Below the pieces are notes generated by a model. It had not been told where the DNA came from, did no database searches, and saw only the letters and a program-made list of their open reading frames with translations. Position numbers and translations under genes: made by a program. This document shows, in pieces, positions 9,001 to 45,256 of a DNA stretch of 45,362 nt; positions within the stretch are counted from its first letter, which is position 1; each line of letters begins with the position of its first letter. The stretch lies in the IMG/VR virus record IMGVR_UViG_3300025387_000027, positions 1-45,362 of that record; one strand, given 5' to 3'. The stretch is from a virus. Taxonomy: Duplodnaviria > Caudoviricetes.

Positions 9001-11729
9001 TCACGACCGCGAGCCTGAAACTGGCTTTCCAAAGCCCTGTCTTGATCTTTTAATTTGTAAACAGGCTCATCTGACAGGACAGCTCTAACAAGATCGTCAG
9101 GCGTTGAGTCAGCAGGTAAATAACCTTGCTCCTCTGCCATTTCTCTCATGCGGTCAAGCGCGTGACCTTTCCTATTTACTAAGCCTGGAAAACGCTTGTG
9201 AATGTCAGCGGCTTTAAGTTCGCCCTTCCAATCTTTAATTCCGCCTTGAGCGCGTATAAAGCCTATTAATGTTTGCGGCTCTTTTACAGCCGTTGGCTTT
9301 TCATTGAGTATGCTTGAGACTTCGGTAATGTCTTGGTGGATTGGAGAAACCTCAACAGCGCCGCTTATCTGTTCTGGCGCAGTTACCGCCTCCGATTTCA
9401 TGTATTGATTAGCGTATTGAGAAAGACGATCAAGAAGTAATCTTGCGTCTTCCGCGTCACCGCCAACTCTCTTTTCTGTGTATGCTACCGTCTCTTTTAA
9501 GATTGGATATGGGTCGATATTATTCGCCTGCATATCCTCAATAGTTCTTGCTAACGAAAGAACTGCTATACGCTGCGTTTCTGAGTGTGATGATATTGGC
9601 GCAGAAATATCTGGCAGATCAGGAGCCGTCCAAGCAAGCTCCCTTGCTAGATTGTCAATGTCAGCTTTTGCACCGCTCTTGGCTTCGTCAACAGCAAACT
9701 CAAGATTAGATAGACGATCACGAAGAGATTGAAGGCTTTCTGTGTTTATGATCCGATAGTTGTCCGTCCCATAAATAACTCCCATCGCTTCTTTGGCTTC
9801 CGGCGTGTCATATGAGCCAAACTTTTCGTATATAATGTCGTCTATCTTGTCTGTATTCCCTTTACGCAGGAATCCTTTAATCTTGTCGGCTTCTTCGCCA
9901 AATAGCCGATCAATAAGCTCGCCTTCATATCTCTTTCCAGCATCAATCAGCGCGTCTATCTCCTCAGTTTTTGGAGCAGACGATAAGCGCATTGTGTCGA
10001 TTGAGCCTGACTTAAGAGCGCCAGGTATGTCAGAAAGCATTTGAGAAGCTGTCAGCGGCTTATTATTAATATTAGCATCGCCAATAATCACATCGCCGGA
10101 TTGCTGCTTAGCTGCGACGGTTTGAGGGCCAGCTTCAAAATTTACACCGTTAAATTGTTGATCTTTTGGCGCTTCACCTAAAGCTTTAATTATTTTCTTG
10201 TCGAGAACAACAACCTGATCTTGAGCTAATTCGCTGTTTATTTTTTTGTAGGAATGAGCTGCTGAATCAGAAAGCTCGAAATGGCTAATACCATCTTCTT
10301 TCATGCGTTCTATGAATTTATCTAATCCTTCGCCTTCGATGGCATCTAAAGTTTTTCCATCATGGTGTTTTTGTTTCCATTCATTAAGAAGAATTTCTTG
10401 ATCTTGCTTGTCTAACTCATCAAATGGTATTCTTTCTCGAATACCTTTTTTTGCGGCATCTTTATTAAACCCATATTTTTCCGCATAATAATTATCTATA
10501 TTTTCAGTATTTTTAAAAAATCCTTGAATTATTATACTGTCGTGTCCAGACTTACTGGCGTAATCTTTCAGTTCTATTGGTGTTAATATTTCATTATCAG
10601 CCAAGCCAATTTTTGATCGTATAGTAGCCACGGTTTCTGGCGTAACAAGCAAACCATTTTTTGGGCTAAATTTAACATTTATAACCTTGCCAACAGCCCA
10701 CCGGCCCATGCCAGAACCGCCGTCATTAGTCCAAACTCCGTTGTTGTCTAAATAAACAGAGTCACCAAAATTCCCACCATCATCATCATATCTGCGGCCT
10801 TCGTAACTATCGACAAACTCATAAGTTCCAGTTTTCCCAAACGCCTCTGAAGCTTGCTTGTTTAGCCCATGACGTAGCTCAAACTCGCCTGACACGGAAA
10901 GATGAGGTTCGCTTGCCGTTTCTTCGCCTGGCATAACACTTACTTCGCCAGCAACATTTGCTTCCGGCTTTGCGCTAGAAACTAGCGGCGGCATTTCTCT
11001 TGGCGTGACAGGCAGCATGTCAGCGCTTGTCAGCGGAGCCTCGCCCATCAAATGACGGCTTAATGCCTCTTCACTGGCTCTATATTCAGCGCCGCTTAGA
11101 AGCTTGCCGCCAGCAGCGCCTAACAGGCTACCAAGGATTACAGATGCGCCAATTCCATTAATGGACTCTTCCGGCGTTCTGGTTTGCTGAATAGATTGTA
11201 GAGCGCCTTCTTGAACGCCAGCAGACACGCCAGCAAGAGCGCCTGTTGTGGCGGCTGTGCGTAATATAGAAACGCCGCCTTTAGCGCTTCTTACAATAGC
11301 GCCGCCTGGGAGTAATGACGGCCAGTCAAGTGCGCCAGCAGCTATTTGAGCAGGAACGGACTTATACCATGGAGCTGTCGCTAAAGTTCTTCTGTCAGCT
11401 TCTTCTTGGTCGATCTGCGCTTTACGCATATCAAAAGCAGCTTGATTATGCGTGTCAGCAAATCTATCCCAATGAAGCATATAAGGCGTATCTTTGACCT
11501 GACTCCAAGGGTCAAAACCTTCCTCTTGTTGAGTAGGCAAGAACTTGTCTTTTTGCGATAGATAAGAGCCAATTGTATTTTGTTGTCTAAAAGCAGCTCC
11601 CATAATTTCATCGCCAGCAGGCGCGTCAGATCCTTGCTCAACATCCTCTAAGCCAGGCGTGACATATGCCTTATCTGGCCGCCCAATGATTGAATCAATG
11701 GAGCCTGGTGTTATCTCAACAATTGGCAT
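6009..11729 (-). CDS. Large internal virion (DNA ejection) protein with polyvalent-type inserts
   Basis: 1906 aa, last of three internal virion genes after tail tubular B; Ala/Gly-rich hydrophobic N-terminal segment, long helical C-terminus, ART-like insert at about 10180-10885. Confidence 0.8.
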   Translation of the reverse strand: MPIVEITPGSIDSIIGRPDKAYVTPGLEDVEQGSDAPAGDEIMGAAFRQQNTIGSYLSQKDKFLPTQQEEGFDPWSQVKDTPYMLHWDRFADTHNQAAFDMRKAQIDQEEADRRTLATAPWYKSVPAQIAAGALDWPSLLPGGAIVRSAKGGVSILRTAATTGALAGVSAGVQEGALQSIQQTRTPEESINGIGASVILGSLLGAAGGKLLSGAEYRASEEALSRHLMGEAPLTSADMLPVTPREMPPLVSSAKPEANVAGEVSVMPGEETASEPHLSVSGEFELRHGLNKQASEAFGKTGTYEFVDSYEGRRYDDDGGNFGDSVYLDNNGVWTNDGGSGMGRWAVGKVINVKFSPKNGLLVTPETVATIRSKIGLADNEILTPIELKDYASKSGHDSIIIQGFFKNTENIDNYYAEKYGFNKDAAKKGIRERIPFDELDKQDQEILLNEWKQKHHDGKTLDAIEGEGLDKFIERMKEDGISHFELSDSAAHSYKKINSELAQDQVVVLDKKIIKALGEAPKDQQFNGVNFEAGPQTVAAKQQSGDVIIGDANINNKPLTASQMLSDIPGALKSGSIDTMRLSSAPKTEEIDALIDAGKRYEGELIDRLFGEEADKIKGFLRKGNTDKIDDIIYEKFGSYDTPEAKEAMGVIYGTDNYRIINTESLQSLRDRLSNLEFAVDEAKSGAKADIDNLARELAWTAPDLPDISAPISSHSETQRIAVLSLARTIEDMQANNIDPYPILKETVAYTEKRVGGDAEDARLLLDRLSQYANQYMKSEAVTAPEQISGAVEVSPIHQDITEVSSILNEKPTAVKEPQTLIGFIRAQGGIKDWKGELKAADIHKRFPGLVNRKGHALDRMREMAEEQGYLPADSTPDDLVRAVLSDEPVYKLKDQDRALESQFQARGREFERRLKANINELTQLYSGYGTHKSIIDRAAELMIHDDLEPDDAIAEATERLASSIDINSQVRNPLDDDIASTFETFRRSLDDIASTFETFRPSVDEADRVAGESSEGGSKAGGRGEGQNSSERLEDNSTSQTYETGAEGKQQGVIPGAERISDKALAERRAEAPLTGGNEPPGGMFDEANTQQPDIFDQTNLNSKPASVSAAAVLPADLEGNSIAGKIASTIANLSRFPTKGGMTQFTPLLRVLHSPSAVVREIGLKMFENPIYLKKNMEGVASEPAAETFMKTWNAGLRRSVEFMNKSYADYAKANSAGPRLTREQFQDLVGRAMRRGDVSDNQYIQAVAKKWRSDVFDPLKEAAIKAGLLPKDVSVDTASSYFSRMWNRNKLIAQEPKFKRIVQQWIERSMPKWQADFDKETADTITKMSQQGEMFGKAEKLRQYEAARIREREERFGIEPGEVSGHIADEVFNTLTGRTEGTARPELIKIQSRGPLKERTFGIPDYWIEEFLEDNIDRVGERYVRMMSADVELANKFGHLDIEQIKQEINAHYAQLSERAANEKQRMALEISRKSDLTDIEGVWDIMRGVGSKFAHPWERNFDHVSRLARHYNYIRSMGEASLASLSETVRPAMVHGLMPYMQTMGHLLTNLDGIKMSVEEAKLAGNIAEQALGHRMATMSEISDPYSTLSPTEAIMKNLTSVASVWNGIRMVTDFQKSIAAVMTQNRILQNAANYGSISKTEKAYLAYLGIDANMASKIDAQFKQHGNLTDGVKVAKSANWKDLDAQRAFYAAINKDVDSIITTSGVADVPLFVNTPVGAAMMQFRRFALSAHQRVLLRGLQEDQARFLGGMIAMSTIGMMATWLKGISGNREGKQPDFSKKPGWWIAEGLDRSGILAGGMEVANAIEKASGFNPIKSPLQVFDEGAQRQSQRIQNRTLMGAVMGPTVGLVEDINTVAGIPMTMYRGQRIAQGQKNAAERMLPFSSYPFVRQMLRYTVNTPD
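8713..8802. repeat. In-frame 42-bp tandem duplication
   Basis: 35 identical nt at 8726-8760 and 8768-8802; encodes DDIASTFETFR twice. Confidence 0.95.
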
Positions 11730-37241: not shown

Positions 37242-37330
37242 GTCAGATCCTCGCGCGTGTACATGCGTAGCTGTCAGCAAAGCGCCCTCTCTTTTGGCCT
37301 TTCCGTATAACTTTCTGGATTGCTTTCTAA

Positions 37331-37554
37331 TCGCGCTAAGCTCAACTAATCGCGTTGACTGCTTTCTTGCGCTTTCTGCTTGCGCTGATTGCACTGTTTG
37401 CGCTGACTGCTTTCTGTCAGCGTTATCTCGCGCTGATCGCGTTGATTGCTTGCTTGTTGCGTCTTATCGCGTTGAAGGCTTTGCGGTCGCTTCTGGCGCT
37501 CCAGGTGTTCGCGCTTACGCTTGCTTACGCTTGTTCAGCGCTGGTCGCGCTAAG
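37331..37554. repeat. Ten dispersed direct repeats of TYGCGYT
   Basis: Copies at 37331, 37350, 37367, 37380, 37398, 37428, 37437, 37467, 37509, 37545, several extended to TYGCGYTGAYTGC. Confidence 0.8.
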
Positions 37555-37639
37555 AACAACCAATGAATAAATAGCTAGCACGACATGTCAGCTTGTTTGT
37601 GAATAAAAGGCGCTTTCTTGATTGCTGTTCAATTACATC

Positions 37640-37800
37640 GCCGCCTCTTGACAGGTTTTTCTCACGCGACATACGCCTTATTTATTCTTACAACTGCTTA
37701 TTATTATAAATATTTTAATTATATGTTGTTTGACAGCATTTTATGGCTTGATAATTACTAGCAAACATGTTTTTGATTATGTCAGCGCAAAATCACTTGC
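37640..37800. promoter_or_regulatory. AT-rich divergent promoter region
   Basis: Strand switch point; TTGACA at 37648 and 37730 on +, but no canonical -10 at 17-bp spacing. Confidence 0.4.
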
Positions 37801-37802
37801 GC

Positions 37803-37837
37803 CGGTTGTCACCACCAACCGTAAACATAAAGGCAAC
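37803..37837 (+). promoter_or_regulatory. CACCAC-loop leader hairpin 1 plus AAAGGCAAC RBS
   Basis: CGGTTG-TCACCAC-CAACCG. Confidence 0.7.
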
Positions 37838-37841
37838 GATC

Positions 37842-37940
37842 ATGAAAACACTTGAGACAATTATATTCACTATAGCCGCAATGGCTTTTGTGCCGCTCAT
37901 GAGCTTTGCGGCGCTTTGCTTGTTCACTCGCTCTTTTTAA
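37842..37940 (+). CDS. 32-aa membrane peptide
   Basis: Hand translation MKTLETIIFTIAAMAFVPLMSFAALCLFTRSF; same leader as neighbouring genes. Confidence 0.65.
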   Translation: MKTLETIIFTIAAMAFVPLMSFAALCLFTRSF

Positions 37941-37942
37941 TC

Positions 37943-37975
37943 GCTGACACCACCAGCAATACAACGAAAGGCAAC
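37943..37975 (+). promoter_or_regulatory. CACCAC-loop leader hairpin 2 plus ACGAAAGGCAAC RBS
   Basis: GCTG-ACACCAC-CAGC. Confidence 0.7.
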
Positions 37976-37979
37976 CACC

Positions 37980-39401
37980 ATGAACGCACCGATTAAACTC
38001 TCAGGCGCAGCTAGAGGCGCATTGCGCAAGGCTATTACTAGCAATCCTAGCTGGCCTGCTTATCGCTCAACAAATGGCTTGACCATTGACACCATGAGCG
38101 CCGAGCAATTGCTGACGGCCGCTTCATTATTCTGCATCGACGTGGCAAGCGTGACGGCTGACGCTGACGCTGACGACATGAGCGACGAAAACCACAAGCC
38201 ACGGCCACATAATAGCGACGAAGTGGCGGCTCTTACCGATAGAATTTCAAAACTAGGCAACCAGGGGTTTGTTTCTGACAAGGATAGTGAGTTCGCTAGA
38301 GCAATCATTAAAACGATATTGGACAAACAACACGGCTCAGCGACCGTTAAGCAATATCGTGTTCTGGAAAAAATCGCAGTTCGTGCAGGCTCTAAGGCTG
38401 ACAAGGCTGGACACCAGGAAGCGCCAAAGCAGGCGGCCGTTAAAGGCGACCTATTTAACGGCAGCTATGCCGTAAAGCAGGCACCAGCAGCGCAAGCAAT
38501 TCCGGCAGCAAATGACGCAGCCGCTCAACTTGCTTCACTTATCGCGCAAATGGCTGGCTCAGCGATTAATCCTGAAACAGTGGCGCGCATTGTTGACGAG
38601 CGCATTAACGCAGCGCTGGCGTTAATTCCTAGCGTCAAAATCGAATGTAAAGGCTTTGACGGCCAATGGCGCGACATGGAAGGCCACCAGCACCCACAAT
38701 TTAAAAACATGCTACGCGCAGCAGGCTCGCGCATGGCTAATGGCTTTGCGCCTAATATCTGGATTGCAGGCCCTGCCGGATCAGGAAAGACACATGCCGG
38801 ACATATGCTTGCAGACGCGCTTGGTTTGCCTTTTCACTTAAATGGCGCCCTTAGCATGGCTTTCGAGTTGCTAGGTTTTATTGACGCAGGCGGCGCATAT
38901 CATCGCACACCGTTCCGCGAAGCTTACGAGCATGGCGGCATTTATATGTTCGATGAGGTTGACGGCTCAGACAATGCCGCACTGCTTGCGCTTAATGCAG
39001 CGCTTGCAAATGGTCATTGCGCTTTCCCAGACCAAGCAATCAAACGCCATCCAAGCTGCATCATCCTCGGAAGCGCGAACACATGGGGACTTGGCGCAAC
39101 TGCTGAATACGTGGGCCGCGCTAAGATCGACGCAGCATTTTTAAGCCGCTTTCCAGTCCGTCTTAATTGGCAATATGACACAGCGCTTGAGGTAGCCATA
39201 AGCGGCAATGAAGGCTTTGCACGTCGCGTTATTGCAGCGCGTGAACGTGCGCACCAGGCAGGCGTTAAAGTCCTAATTGACCCACGCGCTTCACAAGCAG
39301 GCGCAGCGCTTATTGCGGCAGGCTTTACCAGCGATGAAGCGGCAAACCTTACCTATCTTGCAAACCTTTCGGCCGATCAGCGCCGCATTGTGGAGGGCTA
39401 A
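37980..39401 (+). CDS. MoxR/CbbQ-like (dynein-related) AAA+ ATPase with long N-terminal extension
   Basis: Walker A GPAGSGKT, Walker B YMFDEVD, sensor-1 SANT, arginine finger DAAFLSRF. Confidence 0.9.
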   Translation: MNAPIKLSGAARGALRKAITSNPSWPAYRSTNGLTIDTMSAEQLLTAASLFCIDVASVTADADADDMSDENHKPRPHNSDEVAALTDRISKLGNQGFVSDKDSEFARAIIKTILDKQHGSATVKQYRVLEKIAVRAGSKADKAGHQEAPKQAAVKGDLFNGSYAVKQAPAAQAIPAANDAAAQLASLIAQMAGSAINPETVARIVDERINAALALIPSVKIECKGFDGQWRDMEGHQHPQFKNMLRAAGSRMANGFAPNIWIAGPAGSGKTHAGHMLADALGLPFHLNGALSMAFELLGFIDAGGAYHRTPFREAYEHGGIYMFDEVDGSDNAALLALNAALANGHCAFPDQAIKRHPSCIILGSANTWGLGATAEYVGRAKIDAAFLSRFPVRLNWQYDTALEVAISGNEGFARRVIAARERAHQAGVKVLIDPRASQAGAALIAAGFTSDEAANLTYLANLSADQRRIVEG

Positions 39402-39404
39402 CCA

Positions 39405-40277
39405 ATGCGCAAATTTACTCTTGAAGCTTGCCAATCAGTGCAAAAACTAATCGACCGAAAAGCCGTCGATCATTGGGCTTTGTTTGATAGCCCATCAGAG
39501 CTTGGTGAATACGCCAAACAAAATTGCATGGCATCAGATAACATGACGCGCCGAAGCTATGATTTTTTCGGCACAGATACAGGCTTACAGGCAGTTAAAA
39601 AAACACGCGAGGGCGACATTGCCCTTGTCGCTAAATCCGACGCCTTGCTTGAGCGCTTTGAACGCTTTGCTTTTGATACGAGCTGCAAGGGTTGGGCTGA
39701 CGACGTAGCAGGCGCAATCCCTAACGTGCCTGCTTACCTGGCTGGACATCCTAACGCTATGCGGCGGCGCGTGACATATCGCGACGCAGGCGCGCCGCTT
39801 GCTGTCATTGTTGACCTGACGACTAGCTGCTCAATCACTGCTGACGCTATCGAAAGACGTGGCGCAGCCGTCATGGCGCTTGTTCGCTTGTTAGCAATGA
39901 AGCGCCCTGTTGAATTATGGGCTGGCGTTATGGTTGACGCTAACACTCGCAAAGATTGCGCGGCAGTTTTTACAAAGATTGAAACCGCACCGCTCGACCT
40001 GGCGACGGCCGCCTATGTCCTAACCAGCGCAAGCTTTCCGCGCCGCCTCTGCTATGCCTATGCAGACACGCGCCATTATTATTCCGGCTCTTGGCCCTAC
40101 AACAACCACAAGGCAACCAGGCAGCTATTAGCAGACATATGCAAGCCAGCATTTCATCACGTAACCGAGGCGCTTTGTATTCCGGCCATCCATGTTGAAG
40201 ATCAAATTGCAAACGATCCAGAAGGCTGGATAGAGGCGAAGCTAGCCGAATTGACACCAGTAGACCTCGCAGCATGA
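39405..40277 (+). CDS. VWA-like partner of the AAA+ ATPase
   Basis: DVAGAIPNVPAYLAGHP..M, beta-strand VIVDLTTSCS (degenerate MIDAS), RGAAVMALV helix; adjacent to the ATPase gene. Confidence 0.7.
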   Translation: MRKFTLEACQSVQKLIDRKAVDHWALFDSPSELGEYAKQNCMASDNMTRRSYDFFGTDTGLQAVKKTREGDIALVAKSDALLERFERFAFDTSCKGWADDVAGAIPNVPAYLAGHPNAMRRRVTYRDAGAPLAVIVDLTTSCSITADAIERRGAAVMALVRLLAMKRPVELWAGVMVDANTRKDCAAVFTKIETAPLDLATAAYVLTSASFPRRLCYAYADTRHYYSGSWPYNNHKATRQLLADICKPAFHHVTEALCIPAIHVEDQIANDPEGWIEAKLAELTPVDLAA

Positions 40278-40343
40278 GGGCAGCGAGAAGGGCGGCGCTG
40301 CCATACTAGCGGCCGCCTTTCCTGAAGCGCTTCAGGGCCTTCT

Positions 40344-40380
40344 CTGCCTCACCACGGCAGGCAACAAAACGAAAGGCAGC
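40344..40380 (+). promoter_or_regulatory. CACCAC-loop leader hairpin 3 plus ACGAAAGGCAGC RBS
   Basis: CTGCC-TCACCAC-GGCAG. Confidence 0.7.
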
Positions 40381-40384
40381 ACCA

Positions 40385-40597
40385 ATGGGACATTTTGCAA
40401 TTGTTGTATCGCGCACAATTGGACAAACCGCGACGATATACCTTGAAGCAACAAGCAAGGAACAAGCAGAACATAAAATTAATTGTTTAATTGAACAAGA
40501 GGAGCTTGAGGAGGCTTATGAGTATTTAATGTGGGAAAATGAGGAGATATTTGACGGACCAGAACTCTGTCAAACTGTAAAAGTCAATAAAGATTAA
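40385..40597 (+). CDS. Small acidic hypothetical protein
   Basis: 70 aa, LEATSKEQAE motif, very Glu-rich. Confidence 0.7.
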   Translation: MGHFAIVVSRTIGQTATIYLEATSKEQAEHKINCLIEQEELEEAYEYLMWENEEIFDGPELCQTVKVNKD

Positions 40598-40599
40598 CA

Positions 40600-40635
40600 G
40601 GCGAAGCACCACACGCCACCAACACGAAAGGCAAC
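40600..40635 (+). promoter_or_regulatory. CACCAC-loop leader hairpin 4 plus ACGAAAGGCAAC RBS
   Basis: GGCG-AAGCACCACA-CGCC. Confidence 0.6.
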
Positions 40636-40639
40636 ACAG

Positions 40640-41014
40640 ATGAAAGCTTATCTTATAAACCCAAAAGCAGGCACCATTTCCCAGGTCGATATAGACGGCG
40701 GATTGTCTGACATGTATCGACTACTGGATTGCCAGCTAGTTGATGTTTTGCGCGACGCTATACCAGGACACGACATTTGGCTTGACGATGAGGGGCTAAT
40801 GTTTGAGGACGAAGCGCCGCATGGTTTGTTTTATTCAAAACGAACAGGGCAGACATTGGCAGGCTTAGGGCTTGTCTTATCGTCCAATCAGGAGGGCGAC
40901 TGCACAGCGGCGACTTGCTCAGCGGAGGACATAACTAAATACGTCCAGCCAATAGCCGAGATAAACCACGAAGAAAAATCAATCTATCTCGGACATTTTA
41001 AAATAGCAGCTTAA
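40640..41014 (+). CDS. Hypothetical protein (DUF3846-like)
   Basis: MKAYLINP...DIWLDDEGL...LAGLGLVL pattern. Confidence 0.7.
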   Translation: MKAYLINPKAGTISQVDIDGGLSDMYRLLDCQLVDVLRDAIPGHDIWLDDEGLMFEDEAPHGLFYSKRTGQTLAGLGLVLSSNQEGDCTAATCSAEDITKYVQPIAEINHEEKSIYLGHFKIAA

Positions 41015-41021
41015 TAAAGCA

Positions 41022-41072
41022 GGGCGGTCGGCCACCACAGCCAGACCGCCCCTACACACCGACCAAGGCAAC
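41022..41072 (+). promoter_or_regulatory. CACCAC-loop leader hairpin 5 plus AAGGCAAC
   Basis: GGGCGGTC-GGC-CACCACA-GCC-A-GACCGCCC. Confidence 0.7.
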
Positions 41073-41081
41073 GAGGCCAGC

Positions 41082-41351
41082 ATGGTAAAAAAACAATTAT
41101 CAGAACATGACGCCGCTAGACAATGGCGCGAAAATCTTGGCTTGACACGCGCTGCCCTGTCAGAACTGTCAGGATATAGCCAGCAATCAATCGCAGACTA
41201 CGAGCTAGGCTATCAAACAAACGGCAAACCTATTGATTCGGCGGCCTTCAAGCGCTTCAAGCTTGCTTGCGCCGCCGTCCATGCCGGATTGTCTTTTGAT
41301 TGGTCAAAGGTAGAGCTTGAGCATGTCAGAAAAGAAAAAATTATAATTTAA
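41082..41351 (+). CDS. XRE-family HTH protein
   Basis: WRENLGLTRAALSELSGYSQQSIADYELG. Confidence 0.85.
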   Translation: MVKKQLSEHDAARQWRENLGLTRAALSELSGYSQQSIADYELGYQTNGKPIDSAAFKRFKLACAAVHAGLSFDWSKVELEHVRKEKIII

Positions 41352-41372
41352 TAAGCACCAATTCCTAACAAG

Positions 41373-41828
41373 CTAATCACCAATTCCCCTGCCGAACAAC
41401 GACTCAAGCAAGGCGTCTCCAATCTGAATGGAGGCGTCTTTTTTATTTGAAGGACCACTTCCCACAGGCTTGTCAGGAGCAGGAAGTCCGGCTTTAAACT
41501 TTCGGATCATTTCCTGAACGCGCTCACGACTAGCCGCGGCTTCCTCTGGAGTCATAATGTCCAATGGCCTGCTAAACTTATGCTGGCTTGGCTTGTGTGG
41601 TTGAGTCGCTGACACGACCTTCTCACAAGCCTGTCTGACTTCACCTGCTGACGGAGGAAACTCACGCGACTGGCGCGTGATATTCCGGCAAGCCGCGTCA
41701 ACGACGCTTTCATCGTATATCTCGACACAACTCAAGAAAGCTTCCATCGTCTCCCTGATCTGCGCTCCGCTCGGCCTGTAGCTTGGGAAAGCTGAGAACA
41801 TTTGTGTCAGCGATTTTAGCTTGCTCAT
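41373..41828 (-). CDS. Hypothetical replication-associated protein
   Basis: Likely start MSKLKSL; VDAAC...FPPSAGEVRQAC motif seen in genes following phage replication initiators. Confidence 0.6.
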   Translation of the reverse strand: MSKLKSLTQMFSAFPSYRPSGAQIRETMEAFLSCVEIYDESVVDAACRNITRQSREFPPSAGEVRQACEKVVSATQPHKPSQHKFSRPLDIMTPEEAAASRERVQEMIRKFKAGLPAPDKPVGSGPSNKKDASIQIGDALLESLFGRGIGD

Positions 41829-44451: not shown

Positions 44452-44574
44452 TTAAATAACCTTCAAGGTTAAGATGCAGGCTAAGGCTACACAGCCGCCC
44501 ATGATGATTGCTTGCGCGACCATCACGGCAATTTCAAAAGAAGCGTAAAGAAGGGTGAAGGCGTAATCGCTCAT
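44452..44574 (-). CDS. 40-aa membrane peptide
   Basis: Hand translation MSDYAFTLLYASFEIAVMVAQAIIMGGCVALACILTLKVI; ATGA overlap with the cro-like stop, GGGGGA RBS. Confidence 0.55.
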   Translation of the reverse strand: MSDYAFTLLYASFEIAVMVAQAIIMGGCVALACILTLKVI

Positions 44575-44780
44575 TGATCCCCCCATATGTCAGGGCGAAT
44601 ATCGGCAAGCTGAATGTGATTGCTCAGCTCAGCGACGATTTTCTTTGCGACTGCTGGAGAGGCTTGGCGTTCGCCAATCTCAATTCGATTGATCCACCAG
44701 CGCGTGACGCCAACGCGATCAGCAAGCTGCTGCTGCGTTAATCCGTTCTTTTGTCTGGCTGCTTTTAGTGATTTGCTCAT
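44571..44780 (-). CDS. Cro-like XRE HTH regulator
   Basis: LTQQQLADRVGVTRWWINRIEIG...IRPDIWG; divergent from a second HTH gene. Confidence 0.88.
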   Translation of the reverse strand: MSKSLKAARQKNGLTQQQLADRVGVTRWWINRIEIGERQASPAVAKKIVAELSNHIQLADIRPDIWGDQ

Positions 44781-44891: not shown

Positions 44892-44929
44892 GCTTGCTAT
44901 TGGGTTAATAAATCCTTAATAAGTTGGCT

Positions 44930-45256
44930 ATGAGAAAACAAATTAAAGGCTACGTTCAGCCAAAACGAAAGCCTCTTGCCAATCTCAAAGCTTGGAGAAT
45001 CCATCAAGGTATGAACCAAGAACAAGTAGGTGATTTAATGGGCGTTCATAAAGCTCAAGTTTCAAATTGGGAAAGCGGAGTTCGCGCCATACCTGAGAAA
45101 AAACTTTCAGCTTATTGCGACGCTATAGGAATAGACATTGTTGATATTTACAGGTTGCCAGAACACGAAAGCATAGACGCGCTTCTTGAAAACGCCACTT
45201 CTGAGCAGCGTTCAAAAGCAATTCAAATAGTTAAGTTATTGCTTAAACAAGACTAA
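44930..45256 (+). CDS. CI-like XRE repressor without S24 peptidase domain
   Basis: LKAWRIHQGMNQEQVGDLMGVHKAQVSNWESG; 108 aa from ATG 44930. Confidence 0.85.
   Translation: MRKQIKGYVQPKRKPLANLKAWRIHQGMNQEQVGDLMGVHKAQVSNWESGVRAIPEKKLSAYCDAIGIDIVDIYRLPEHESIDALLENATSEQRSKAIQIVKLLLKQD

Follow-up and report, generated by a model that had tools for sequence, protein, structure and literature searches.

The virus record IMGVR_UViG_3300025387_000027 (Duplodnaviria; Caudoviricetes), analysed over its whole length of 45,362 bp (hereafter, the window) and estimated to be 84% complete, contains a plus-strand operon with a CobS-like ATPase gene, in which five gene leaders each carry a short hairpin that displays the word CACCAC in its loop. 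The stems of these hairpins are unrelated in sequence, and each hairpin is followed by a T-poor spacer holding a Shine–Dalgarno (SD) signal and by an ATG. We tentatively read the five hairpins as loop-specific RNA sites that would control the translation initiation of each cistron, an interpretation to which we assign somewhat less than an even chance. On the sequence comparisons reported below, the element is at present a structural motif with good support and few known members.

Anatomy and statistics of the hairpin units

An initial annotation of this DNA had placed five CACCAC hairpins on different stems in the leaders of plus-strand genes, and all five were recovered at those positions (hairpin, spacer and start codon are together called a unit; units 1–5 in Table 1). 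The 3' end of the hairpin lay 20, 22, 24, 22 and 30 nt from the ATG in units 1 to 5, whereas the distance from the upstream stop codon to the hairpin was 2, 66, 2 and 7 nt in units 2 to 5, with no gene ahead of unit 1. Since the former distance is nearly constant and the latter varies, the unit appears to be tied to the start that it precedes, not to the upstream stop. The stem of unit 3 extends to six pairs if the G·T pair from 40343 is counted, and that of unit 5 consists of three pairs, a bulged A and eight pairs (11 in all). As the initial annotation had noted, every gene of the operon but the VWA-like one (DUF7192) is preceded by a unit; the DUF7192 gene starts 3 nt past the ATPase stop behind GGAGGG and is therefore translationally coupled, so that units stand before all five independently starting genes.

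The spacers of the five units were composed of 46% A, 31% C, 19% G and 4% T, and units 3 and 4 had no T at all from hairpin to ATG. In 29 minus-strand genes, the 22 nt of leader contained 27% T and 17% C. This departure from the minus-strand leaders suggests that the operon has a leader design of its own. The sequence directly upstream of hairpins 2, 4 and 5 was A/T-rich. Reads of hairpin 5 from four runs contained 10 differences, those listed being 41048 G>T, 41061 G>A and 41062 A>G, and the remainder lying near the ends of read pieces. In the fold of leader 2 (37930–37971), the end of the small open reading frame (ORF), GCTCTTTTT, paired with the GAAAGGC SD of the ATPase gene around the hairpin (z −1.25, no better than shuffles); in this model, the ATPase start could be released when the small ORF is translated.

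The word CACCAC was not enriched in the window (11 found, 11.7 expected), and 5 of its 11 occurrences lay inside the five leaders. The combination CACCAC-N4-40-AAGGCARC occurred five times in the window on the forward strand and was absent from both the reverse strand and a backwards control. Under a fixed pairing rule (at least four Watson–Crick pairs, the loop being widened by at most 3 nt per side), four of the five sites passed, the exception being the bulged 11-pair stem of unit 5; among the other CACCAC sites, counted over the window and 55 relatives' loci, 34 of 392 (8.7%) did so. The probabilities obtained by shuffling the flanks came to 1.3e-5 when multiplied, and all five hairpins were present in the minimum-free-energy folds of their leaders. 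When hairpin loops were screened blindly for recurrent 6-mers, the result was noisy, with several other 6-mers of the window reaching three to four loop sites; further loop types from this screen were dropped, as it was too noisy to define them. What is exceptional about the element is its clustering, its intergenic position and its common downstream context, and not the loop count by itself.

Among the five NCACCAC hairpins of the window and of one relative (L177, see below), six of six stem pairs changed on both sides and 96.7% of cells were paired, values that none of 500 shuffles reached and that compare with 15%–53% pairing in slid registers, although the count represents an upper view because the hairpins had been selected for pairing. 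Judging from this alignment, it is the structure and the loop word that are conserved, as proposed at the outset, while the stem sequences are free.

The initial annotation had further described a shared extended ribosome-binding site (RBS). The word AAGGCARC was indeed found before the ATG in all five units, ending 4 nt from it in four and 9 nt in the fifth, but the signal proved to be generic and widespread in viral contigs. An estimated ~1500 stretches of the viral collection contained CGAAAGGCAAC with an ATG 2–5 nt further on, a number near a rough chance estimate; of 121 matches sampled, 67 opened an ORF of 60 codons or more, which greatly exceeds the chance level, and many of them are therefore real starts. 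Among these 67, CACCAC stood within 45 nt upstream in four and a hairpin unit in none. Similar AAAGG/AGGA signals precede the minus-strand genes of the window. GAAAGG is complementary to CCUUUC, a sequence in the 3' tail of 16S rRNA in many bacteria, the terminal bases of which take part in SD pairing; the 13 species of that study include no alphaproteobacterium (PMC6288834). The single binned genome containing one relative, L183, yielded no 16S 3' end, and the proposed GAAAGG–CCUUUC pairing thus rests on other bacteria. The extended RBS is an ordinary start signal, so that the novelty sits in the hairpin and its loop.

Two sequence patterns were tried in viral contigs and rejected. The loose pattern CACCAC-N6-30-GAAAGGCARC occurred in an estimated ~920 stretches with one match each, near a rough chance estimate, and none of the 128 examined was a hairpin unit. 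The pattern of unit 1, CACCAC-N4-9-AAACRTAAAGGCA, matched 12 loci, all of them coding or chance and none beside an ATPase gene.

Comparison with known elements returned little. An Rfam search, a check suggested with the first description, gave three weak, unrelated matches at E-values up to 10 and none at a unit, and a sigma-70 promoter scan of 37300–41700 found no promoter at any unit. No plus-strand U-tract terminator was found at the five hairpins or elsewhere inside the operon of the window, the hairpins being followed by TAAACA, AATACA, CAACAA, ACCAAC and CTACAC. A limited literature search found neither a phage intergenic hairpin with the CACCAC word nor regulatory signals of Sinorhizobium phage phiM5, a relative considered below.

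Distribution among relatives

Searches based on ATPase alignments identified 45 loci in viral contigs, 10 in metagenomes, the window not counted, and one in a genome, which is identical to locus L173; phiM5 was also obtained by a nucleotide search, and a single-protein locus search in viral contigs gave no match. The ATPase was present in 58 of the 58 relatives' loci, DUF7192 in 34 and DUF3846 in 2, and the 70-aa, helix-turn-helix (HTH) and 32-aa genes had no homologue in these loci beyond the window's own copy.

The clearest counterpart was L177, a metagenome locus with 60% G+C and an ATPase 59% identical to that of the window, which carries units at both of its first leaders. The first (L177a), TTAGCCG-TCACCAC-CGGCTGA, stands 20 nt ahead of a 36-aa hydrophobic ORF and starts a few nucleotides past the predicted transcript start (promoter read by eye), and the second (L177b), GCCGCGCCCTG-ACACCAC-CGGGGCGCGGT, precedes the ATPase gene. 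With the flanking T or A counted in, their 7-nt loops are identical to the loops of units 1 and 2 of the window, respectively, and the stems share nothing. L177b has the form of a textbook intrinsic terminator, with 11 pairs, the ACACCAC loop and then TTTTTCTTTCTT, placed between the small ORF and the ATPase gene with no room for a promoter behind it. The stems of L177a and window unit 3 contain G·T pairs and, because of these, fit folding of the plus strand only. A tiny hydrophobic ORF opens both operons, at 37842–37940 in the window (32 aa) and at 1439–1549 in L177 (36 aa), in the same position and with no detectable similarity.

In a relative with 69% G+C (L145; ATPase 55% identical), CACCAC occurred 78 times on the operon strand versus 33 times on the other, and 35 of the 78 fell in three 2-kb bins over the ATPase operon. 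Its leaders contain unstructured CACCAC tracts directly 5' of a GAAGGA SD, and elsewhere the word lies partly in CACCACA loops. This single-stranded occurrence suggests that the word is read as a single strand. Three tandem hairpins with CACCACA-type loops (12, 5–8 and 4 pairs) also occupy positions 9041–9193 of this locus, within a stretch of ~300 nt that follows the last operon gene and shows no obvious ORF; they are followed by GGATTCCAAG, an RBS-like word without an ATG.

A second loop word was found in L173 and L174 (ATPase 63% identical), where TTGCCAGA (YTGCCAGA) is carried on stems of four to five pairs (TCCGC, CGGC, CCGC, CGCC) 20–23 nt ahead of the ATG, with CCGAAGG as SD. The unit pair after DUF7192 differs between these two loci by a compensatory change. 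Neither loop was present in most other relatives. The expectation that orthologous leaders would carry the motif was thus borne out at both leaders of L177, on different stems, but not in most relatives, including the closer L178. The covariance model called for at the start could be built (R1) but recovered no new member. As far as these sequences go, the hairpin element is real and under selection yet patchy, and its distribution departs from the ATPase tree.

Other leader types were seen in the family. Four relatives with ATPases 36%–41% identical (L152, L153, L158 and L151) lack a purine-rich SD and have pure A/C leaders, such as CACCAC-CAA-CACCAC-AAAAAA-ATG; CACCAC was strongly strand-biased in them (19:1 in L152). 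In phiM5 (L006), the same long palindromic hairpin, TGATTTGTGTAAAAGACAAATCA, precedes both the ATPase gene and the DUF7192 gene (~812–845 and 2105–2140), flanked by GGCGCC on both sides before the latter and on the 3' side only before the former. By its sequence, this hairpin is a third, distinct intergenic repeat of the ATPase operon family. On the minus strand of a low-G+C relative (L170, 3619–7005), TCGTCGG-type loops stand on CTTTA/TAAAG-like stems, CGTCGG being in hairpin loops in 7 of 10 cases.

The initial annotation had also suggested that the units serve as cassette junctions, and one direct example came to light. A contig from run X4 (Logan) matches 40308–40378 and, right after the AAGGCA of unit 3, continues with a spacer and a DUF3846-like start, so that the 70-aa gene and one unit are gone. 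Contigs from runs X5 and X6 lose their match at 40466 and regain it at 40607 and 40624, inside unit 4. This junction pattern, drawn from contigs and few cases, fits recombination at repeated units. Because copy-and-paste would have kept the stems alike, we regard such recombination as a consequence of the repeats and not as their purpose. A contig of run X5 also skips 129 nt of the divergent promoter region (window 37660–37790), where strains differ too.

Proposed translation control and its alternatives

The reading of the hairpins as translation-control sites draws on the fixed distance to the start codon, the restriction of units to independently started genes, the single-stranded word in L145, the second loop in L173 and L174, and the G·T pairs that fit only the plus strand. 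The loop words retained on free stems, the matching loops at orthologous leaders of L177 and the T-poor spacers also speak for it. In the mechanism that we envisage, the element would act as RNA where the ribosome-binding region of the mRNA begins on its 5' side, and the sole job of the stem would be to keep the loop exposed and unpaired. The loop would be recognised in trans, by a protein or by the 30S subunit, and initiation would thereby shift up or down at all five cistrons together; the effect may be enhancing or repressing. As a by-product, the repeated units might double as recombination points for the gain and loss of accessory genes. Translational control works in a like manner at the thrS operator and in the T4 RegA regulon.

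Several observations weigh against this reading. Only the hairpin of unit 5 was more stable than its shuffles (z −3.5; the other four, +0.4 to −1.5), and the stems of units 2 and 4 have just four pairs each; thermodynamics alone would have missed the hairpins. No RNA run was listed for the stretch. The selection for pairing noted above means that covariation is seen at its most favourable. The locus whose ATPase is most similar to that of the window (L178; 75% in the best segment) contains no CACCAC, and L173 and L174, with ATPases more similar than that of L177, carry another loop. Across 60 sources (583 kb), R1 found nothing above 18 bits beyond its five training hairpins, so the family is tiny. 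The ATPase and DUF7192 are the only proteins common to the CACCAC-type phages, and both also occur in phages with another loop or none; no candidate loop-binding protein was found among these common proteins. Finally, the loops on terminator-like stems (L177b and L145 at 9041) point to transcription rather than translation.

The main competitor, which we consider unlikely, takes up this last point: the hairpins would be nut/boxB-like or attenuator sites, at which a loop-bound factor gives read-through of intercistronic terminators or the ribosome of the upstream gene melts the hairpin, transcription thereby becoming coupled to translation. In L177, a full intrinsic terminator separating the small ORF from the ATPase gene does carry the loop (L177b), the 12-pair CACCACA stem of L145 follows the last gene with two more such loops within 150 nt, and hairpins 2, 4 and 5 start 2–7 nt past the upstream stop. 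In the window, however, no plus-strand T run follows any of the five hairpins, two of which have only four pairs, and the constant distance is that to the ATG, not to the stop. GCTCTTT, which we take to be the boxA core, lies 6 nt before hairpin 2 and was considered as a nut element, but it accompanies one of five hairpins and is unenriched (7 found, 11.5 expected). L177 lacks it at the orthologous position, and the occurrence was judged to be chance. None of the 53 ORFs of the window matched an antiterminator-annotated PHROG, although small arginine-rich proteins could escape such a scan and the record is incomplete. The boxB-like antitermination offered in the initial annotation was therefore not borne out in the window, given the inconsistent boxA, the missing N-like gene and the lack of U-tract terminators; nor was a regulon in the genome-wide sense, since the element is confined to one operon. 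Lambda-type operons, moreover, need one nut site, not one per gene. A role in mRNA processing or stability seems rather improbable to us. A cut just upstream of each hairpin would leave a protective 5' stem-loop and a U-poor leader resisting RNase E, which would suit the intercistronic positions, the A/T-rich sequence just upstream of hairpins 2, 4 and 5, the nearly T-free spacers and the location of L177a a few nucleotides after its by-eye transcript start; phage T7 early RNA likewise has intercistronic processing hairpins. Yet four-pair stems protect weakly, the folds contain no long RNase III-type duplex, and the invariant loop word, with a second word on the same scaffold, would be left without a reason.

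Two further explanations were considered. In one, the units would mainly be mobile expression cassettes comparable to the promoter-early stem-loops (PeSLs) known from T4-type phages; recombinational spread would account for the likeness of the units, and their role would be the swapping of accessory genes. For this, to which we give a slim chance, speak the X4 junction in unit 3, the X5 and X6 matches resuming in unit 4, and the contrast between unit-flanked genes with few or no homologues in the 58 loci and an ATPase present in all of them. PeSLs are recombining cassettes of a stem-loop and an SD (PMC2839356, PMC4122927). However, the units lack the sigma-70 promoter that is the defining part of a PeSL, the junction in X4 is the one clean case, and copy-and-paste would keep stems alike, whereas here it is only the stems that differ. 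CACCAC also recurs in phages with G+C contents of 46%, 60% and 69%, between which the rest of the non-coding DNA cannot be aligned; this requires selection on the word itself. A signal at the DNA level, in which single-strand hairpins or cruciforms are read by a nicking, priming or recombination enzyme, is highly improbable. HUH-nuclease and attC-type sites do combine a variable stem with a conserved loop, but every copy here stands in gene orientation at a fixed distance to the ATG, the G·T pairs become A·C mismatches on the opposite strand, the hairpins measure 15–30 nt, far shorter than attC sites, and neither an integrase nor a Rep-type nuclease was found among the 53 ORFs scanned in this 84%-complete record.

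Returning to translation control, a broader possibility, which we hold to be doubtful, is that the units belong to a new class of loop-coded RNA operators, in which the scaffold is fixed and lineages exchange the loop word (CACCAC versus TTGCCAGA). The scaffold comprises a stem of 4–11 pairs, a loop of 7–10 nt and a U-poor spacer of 20–24 nt holding the SD, and both loop words contain NCCA, resembling the tRNA 3' end. Such a class would call for new RNA-binding regulators to match, or for a host factor able to recognise CCA-like ends, and the reader would switch a whole accessory CobS/CobT-like operon on or off gene by gene. If the loop is read by a factor, the unit would amount to a compact, portable signal that governs how strongly each gene of a phage accessory operon is expressed, a natural 'standard part' in which the loop is an exchangeable address and the stem is free. 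It would also be a further example of a regulatory unit that is the seam for trading small phage genes, so far documented mainly for T4-type PeSLs. As operons of a CobS-like ATPase, DUF7192 and variable small genes are widespread in phages, a control signal would offer a way to learn when they are expressed.

Genome setting and likeness to known systems

Scans of the 53 ORFs against PHROG and Pfam revealed a podovirus-type structural module (portal, major head protein, tail tube proteins and a 1906-aa internal virion protein), together with a terminase, an exonuclease, a replication-initiation or primosomal-type protein and a RusA-like resolvase. Nearly all genes lie on the minus strand; the sole plus-strand island is the six-gene operon at 37842–41351 (Table 1). 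It is preceded by an A/T-rich divergent region holding TTGACA-16-TAATTA, read by eye, which the consensus promoter scan skipped since the second hexamer ends in A. The ATPase had 1814 homologues, the closest being P0001–P0007 (74%–99% identical). The terminator-like hairpin at the end of the operon stands before convergent minus-strand genes and may work both ways. At the right end of the window, a divergent HTH pair, Cro-like (69 aa, 44571–44780, minus strand) and CI-like (110 aa, 44924–45256, plus strand), suggests a temperate-type switch. The nearest cultured phage is a Sinorhizobium phage, and one relative was binned with a Hyphomicrobiaceae genome.

Table 1. Positions in the window of the hairpin units and other features of the plus-strand operon.
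Feature	Position	Strand	Description	Basis
Promoter-like site (predicted)	37730..37758	+	TTGACA, 16 nt ending TG-A, TAATTA	Read by eye
Unit 1	37803..37844	+	Leader of first gene; hairpin CGGTTG-TCACCAC-CAACCG 37803–37821; 20-nt spacer with AAAGGCAAC; ATG 37842	R1, 25.8 bits
32-aa hydrophobic peptide gene	37842..37940	+	No Pfam/PHROG family	
Unit 2	37943..37982	+	Hairpin GCTG-ACACCAC-CAGC 37943–37957, 2 nt past stop; 22-nt spacer with ACGAAAGGCAAC; ATG 37980	R1, 24.2 bits
CobS-like AAA+ ATPase gene	37980..39401	+	473 aa	phrog_249, E 1.9e-45; weak AAA_5 match below Pfam cut-off
DUF7192 gene	39405..40277	+	CobT/VWA-like partner, 290 aa	PF23822, E 1.3e-20; phrog_1909
Two G+C-rich hairpins	40283..40342	+	Between DUF7192 stop and unit 3	Fold of 40278–40415
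Unit 3	40344..40387	+	Hairpin CTGCC-TCACCAC-GGCAG 40344–40360; 24-nt T-free spacer with ACGAAAGGCAGC; ATG 40385	R1, 23.6 bits
70-aa gene	40385..40597	+	No known family; missing in one natural variant	Pfam/PHROG scans; contig comparison
Unit 4	40600..40642	+	Hairpin GGCG-AAGCACCACA-CGCC 40600–40617, 2 nt past stop; 22-nt T-free spacer with ACGAAAGGCAAC; ATG 40640	Sequence; fold
DUF3846 gene	40640..41014	+	124 aa	PF12957, E 4e-10
Unit 5	41022..41084	+	Hairpin GGGCGGTCGGC-CACCACA-GCC-A-GACCGCCC 41022–41051; 30-nt spacer with AAGGCAAC then GAGG; ATG 41082	Fold, z −3.5
HTH (Xre-type) gene	41082..41351	+	89 aa, last gene of the operon	PF01381, E 4.2e-07
Intrinsic-terminator-like hairpin	41410..41440	+	12 pairs then T run, closing the operon	Terminator scan

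The units can be set beside several described elements. They differ from intrinsic terminators in having no direct U run after the hairpin, and from integron attC sites in their length of 15–30 nt and the absence of an integrase among the 53 ORFs. With the RNase III sites of the T7 early operon, they share the placement of structured elements between the cistrons of one early transcript, but those sites are long, irregular duplexes, whereas the window hairpins have 4–11 pairs and a conserved loop. Lambda-type nut sites resemble them as small RNA hairpins whose specificity resides in the loop and not in the stem; in lambda, P22 and phi21, the loop words differ between phage lineages, and in L177 the loop sits on a real terminator. 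Here, however, a single operon has five copies, all of them linked to start codons, with A/C-only loops of 7–10 nt, an inconsistent boxA, no N-like gene among the 53 ORFs and no U-tract at the hairpins.

The defining feature of the PeSLs is a consensus sigma-70 promoter (−35 and −10) that is AT-rich in its upstream part, and their stems are alike (GGGG...CCCC) (PMC2839356). Like them, the window units combine a stem-loop, an SD and a start codon before small accessory genes, flank variable genes and are possible recombination points; unlike them, they have no promoter, some T-free spacers, unrelated stems and a conserved loop. The thrS operator and T4 RegA systems offer another likeness. Although the loop word and scaffold of the window are without a described counterpart in Rfam or in a limited literature search, those systems likewise place a hairpin or motif at the 5' border of the ribosome-binding region; there it is read by a single protein, which in T4 is a repressor common to many cistrons.

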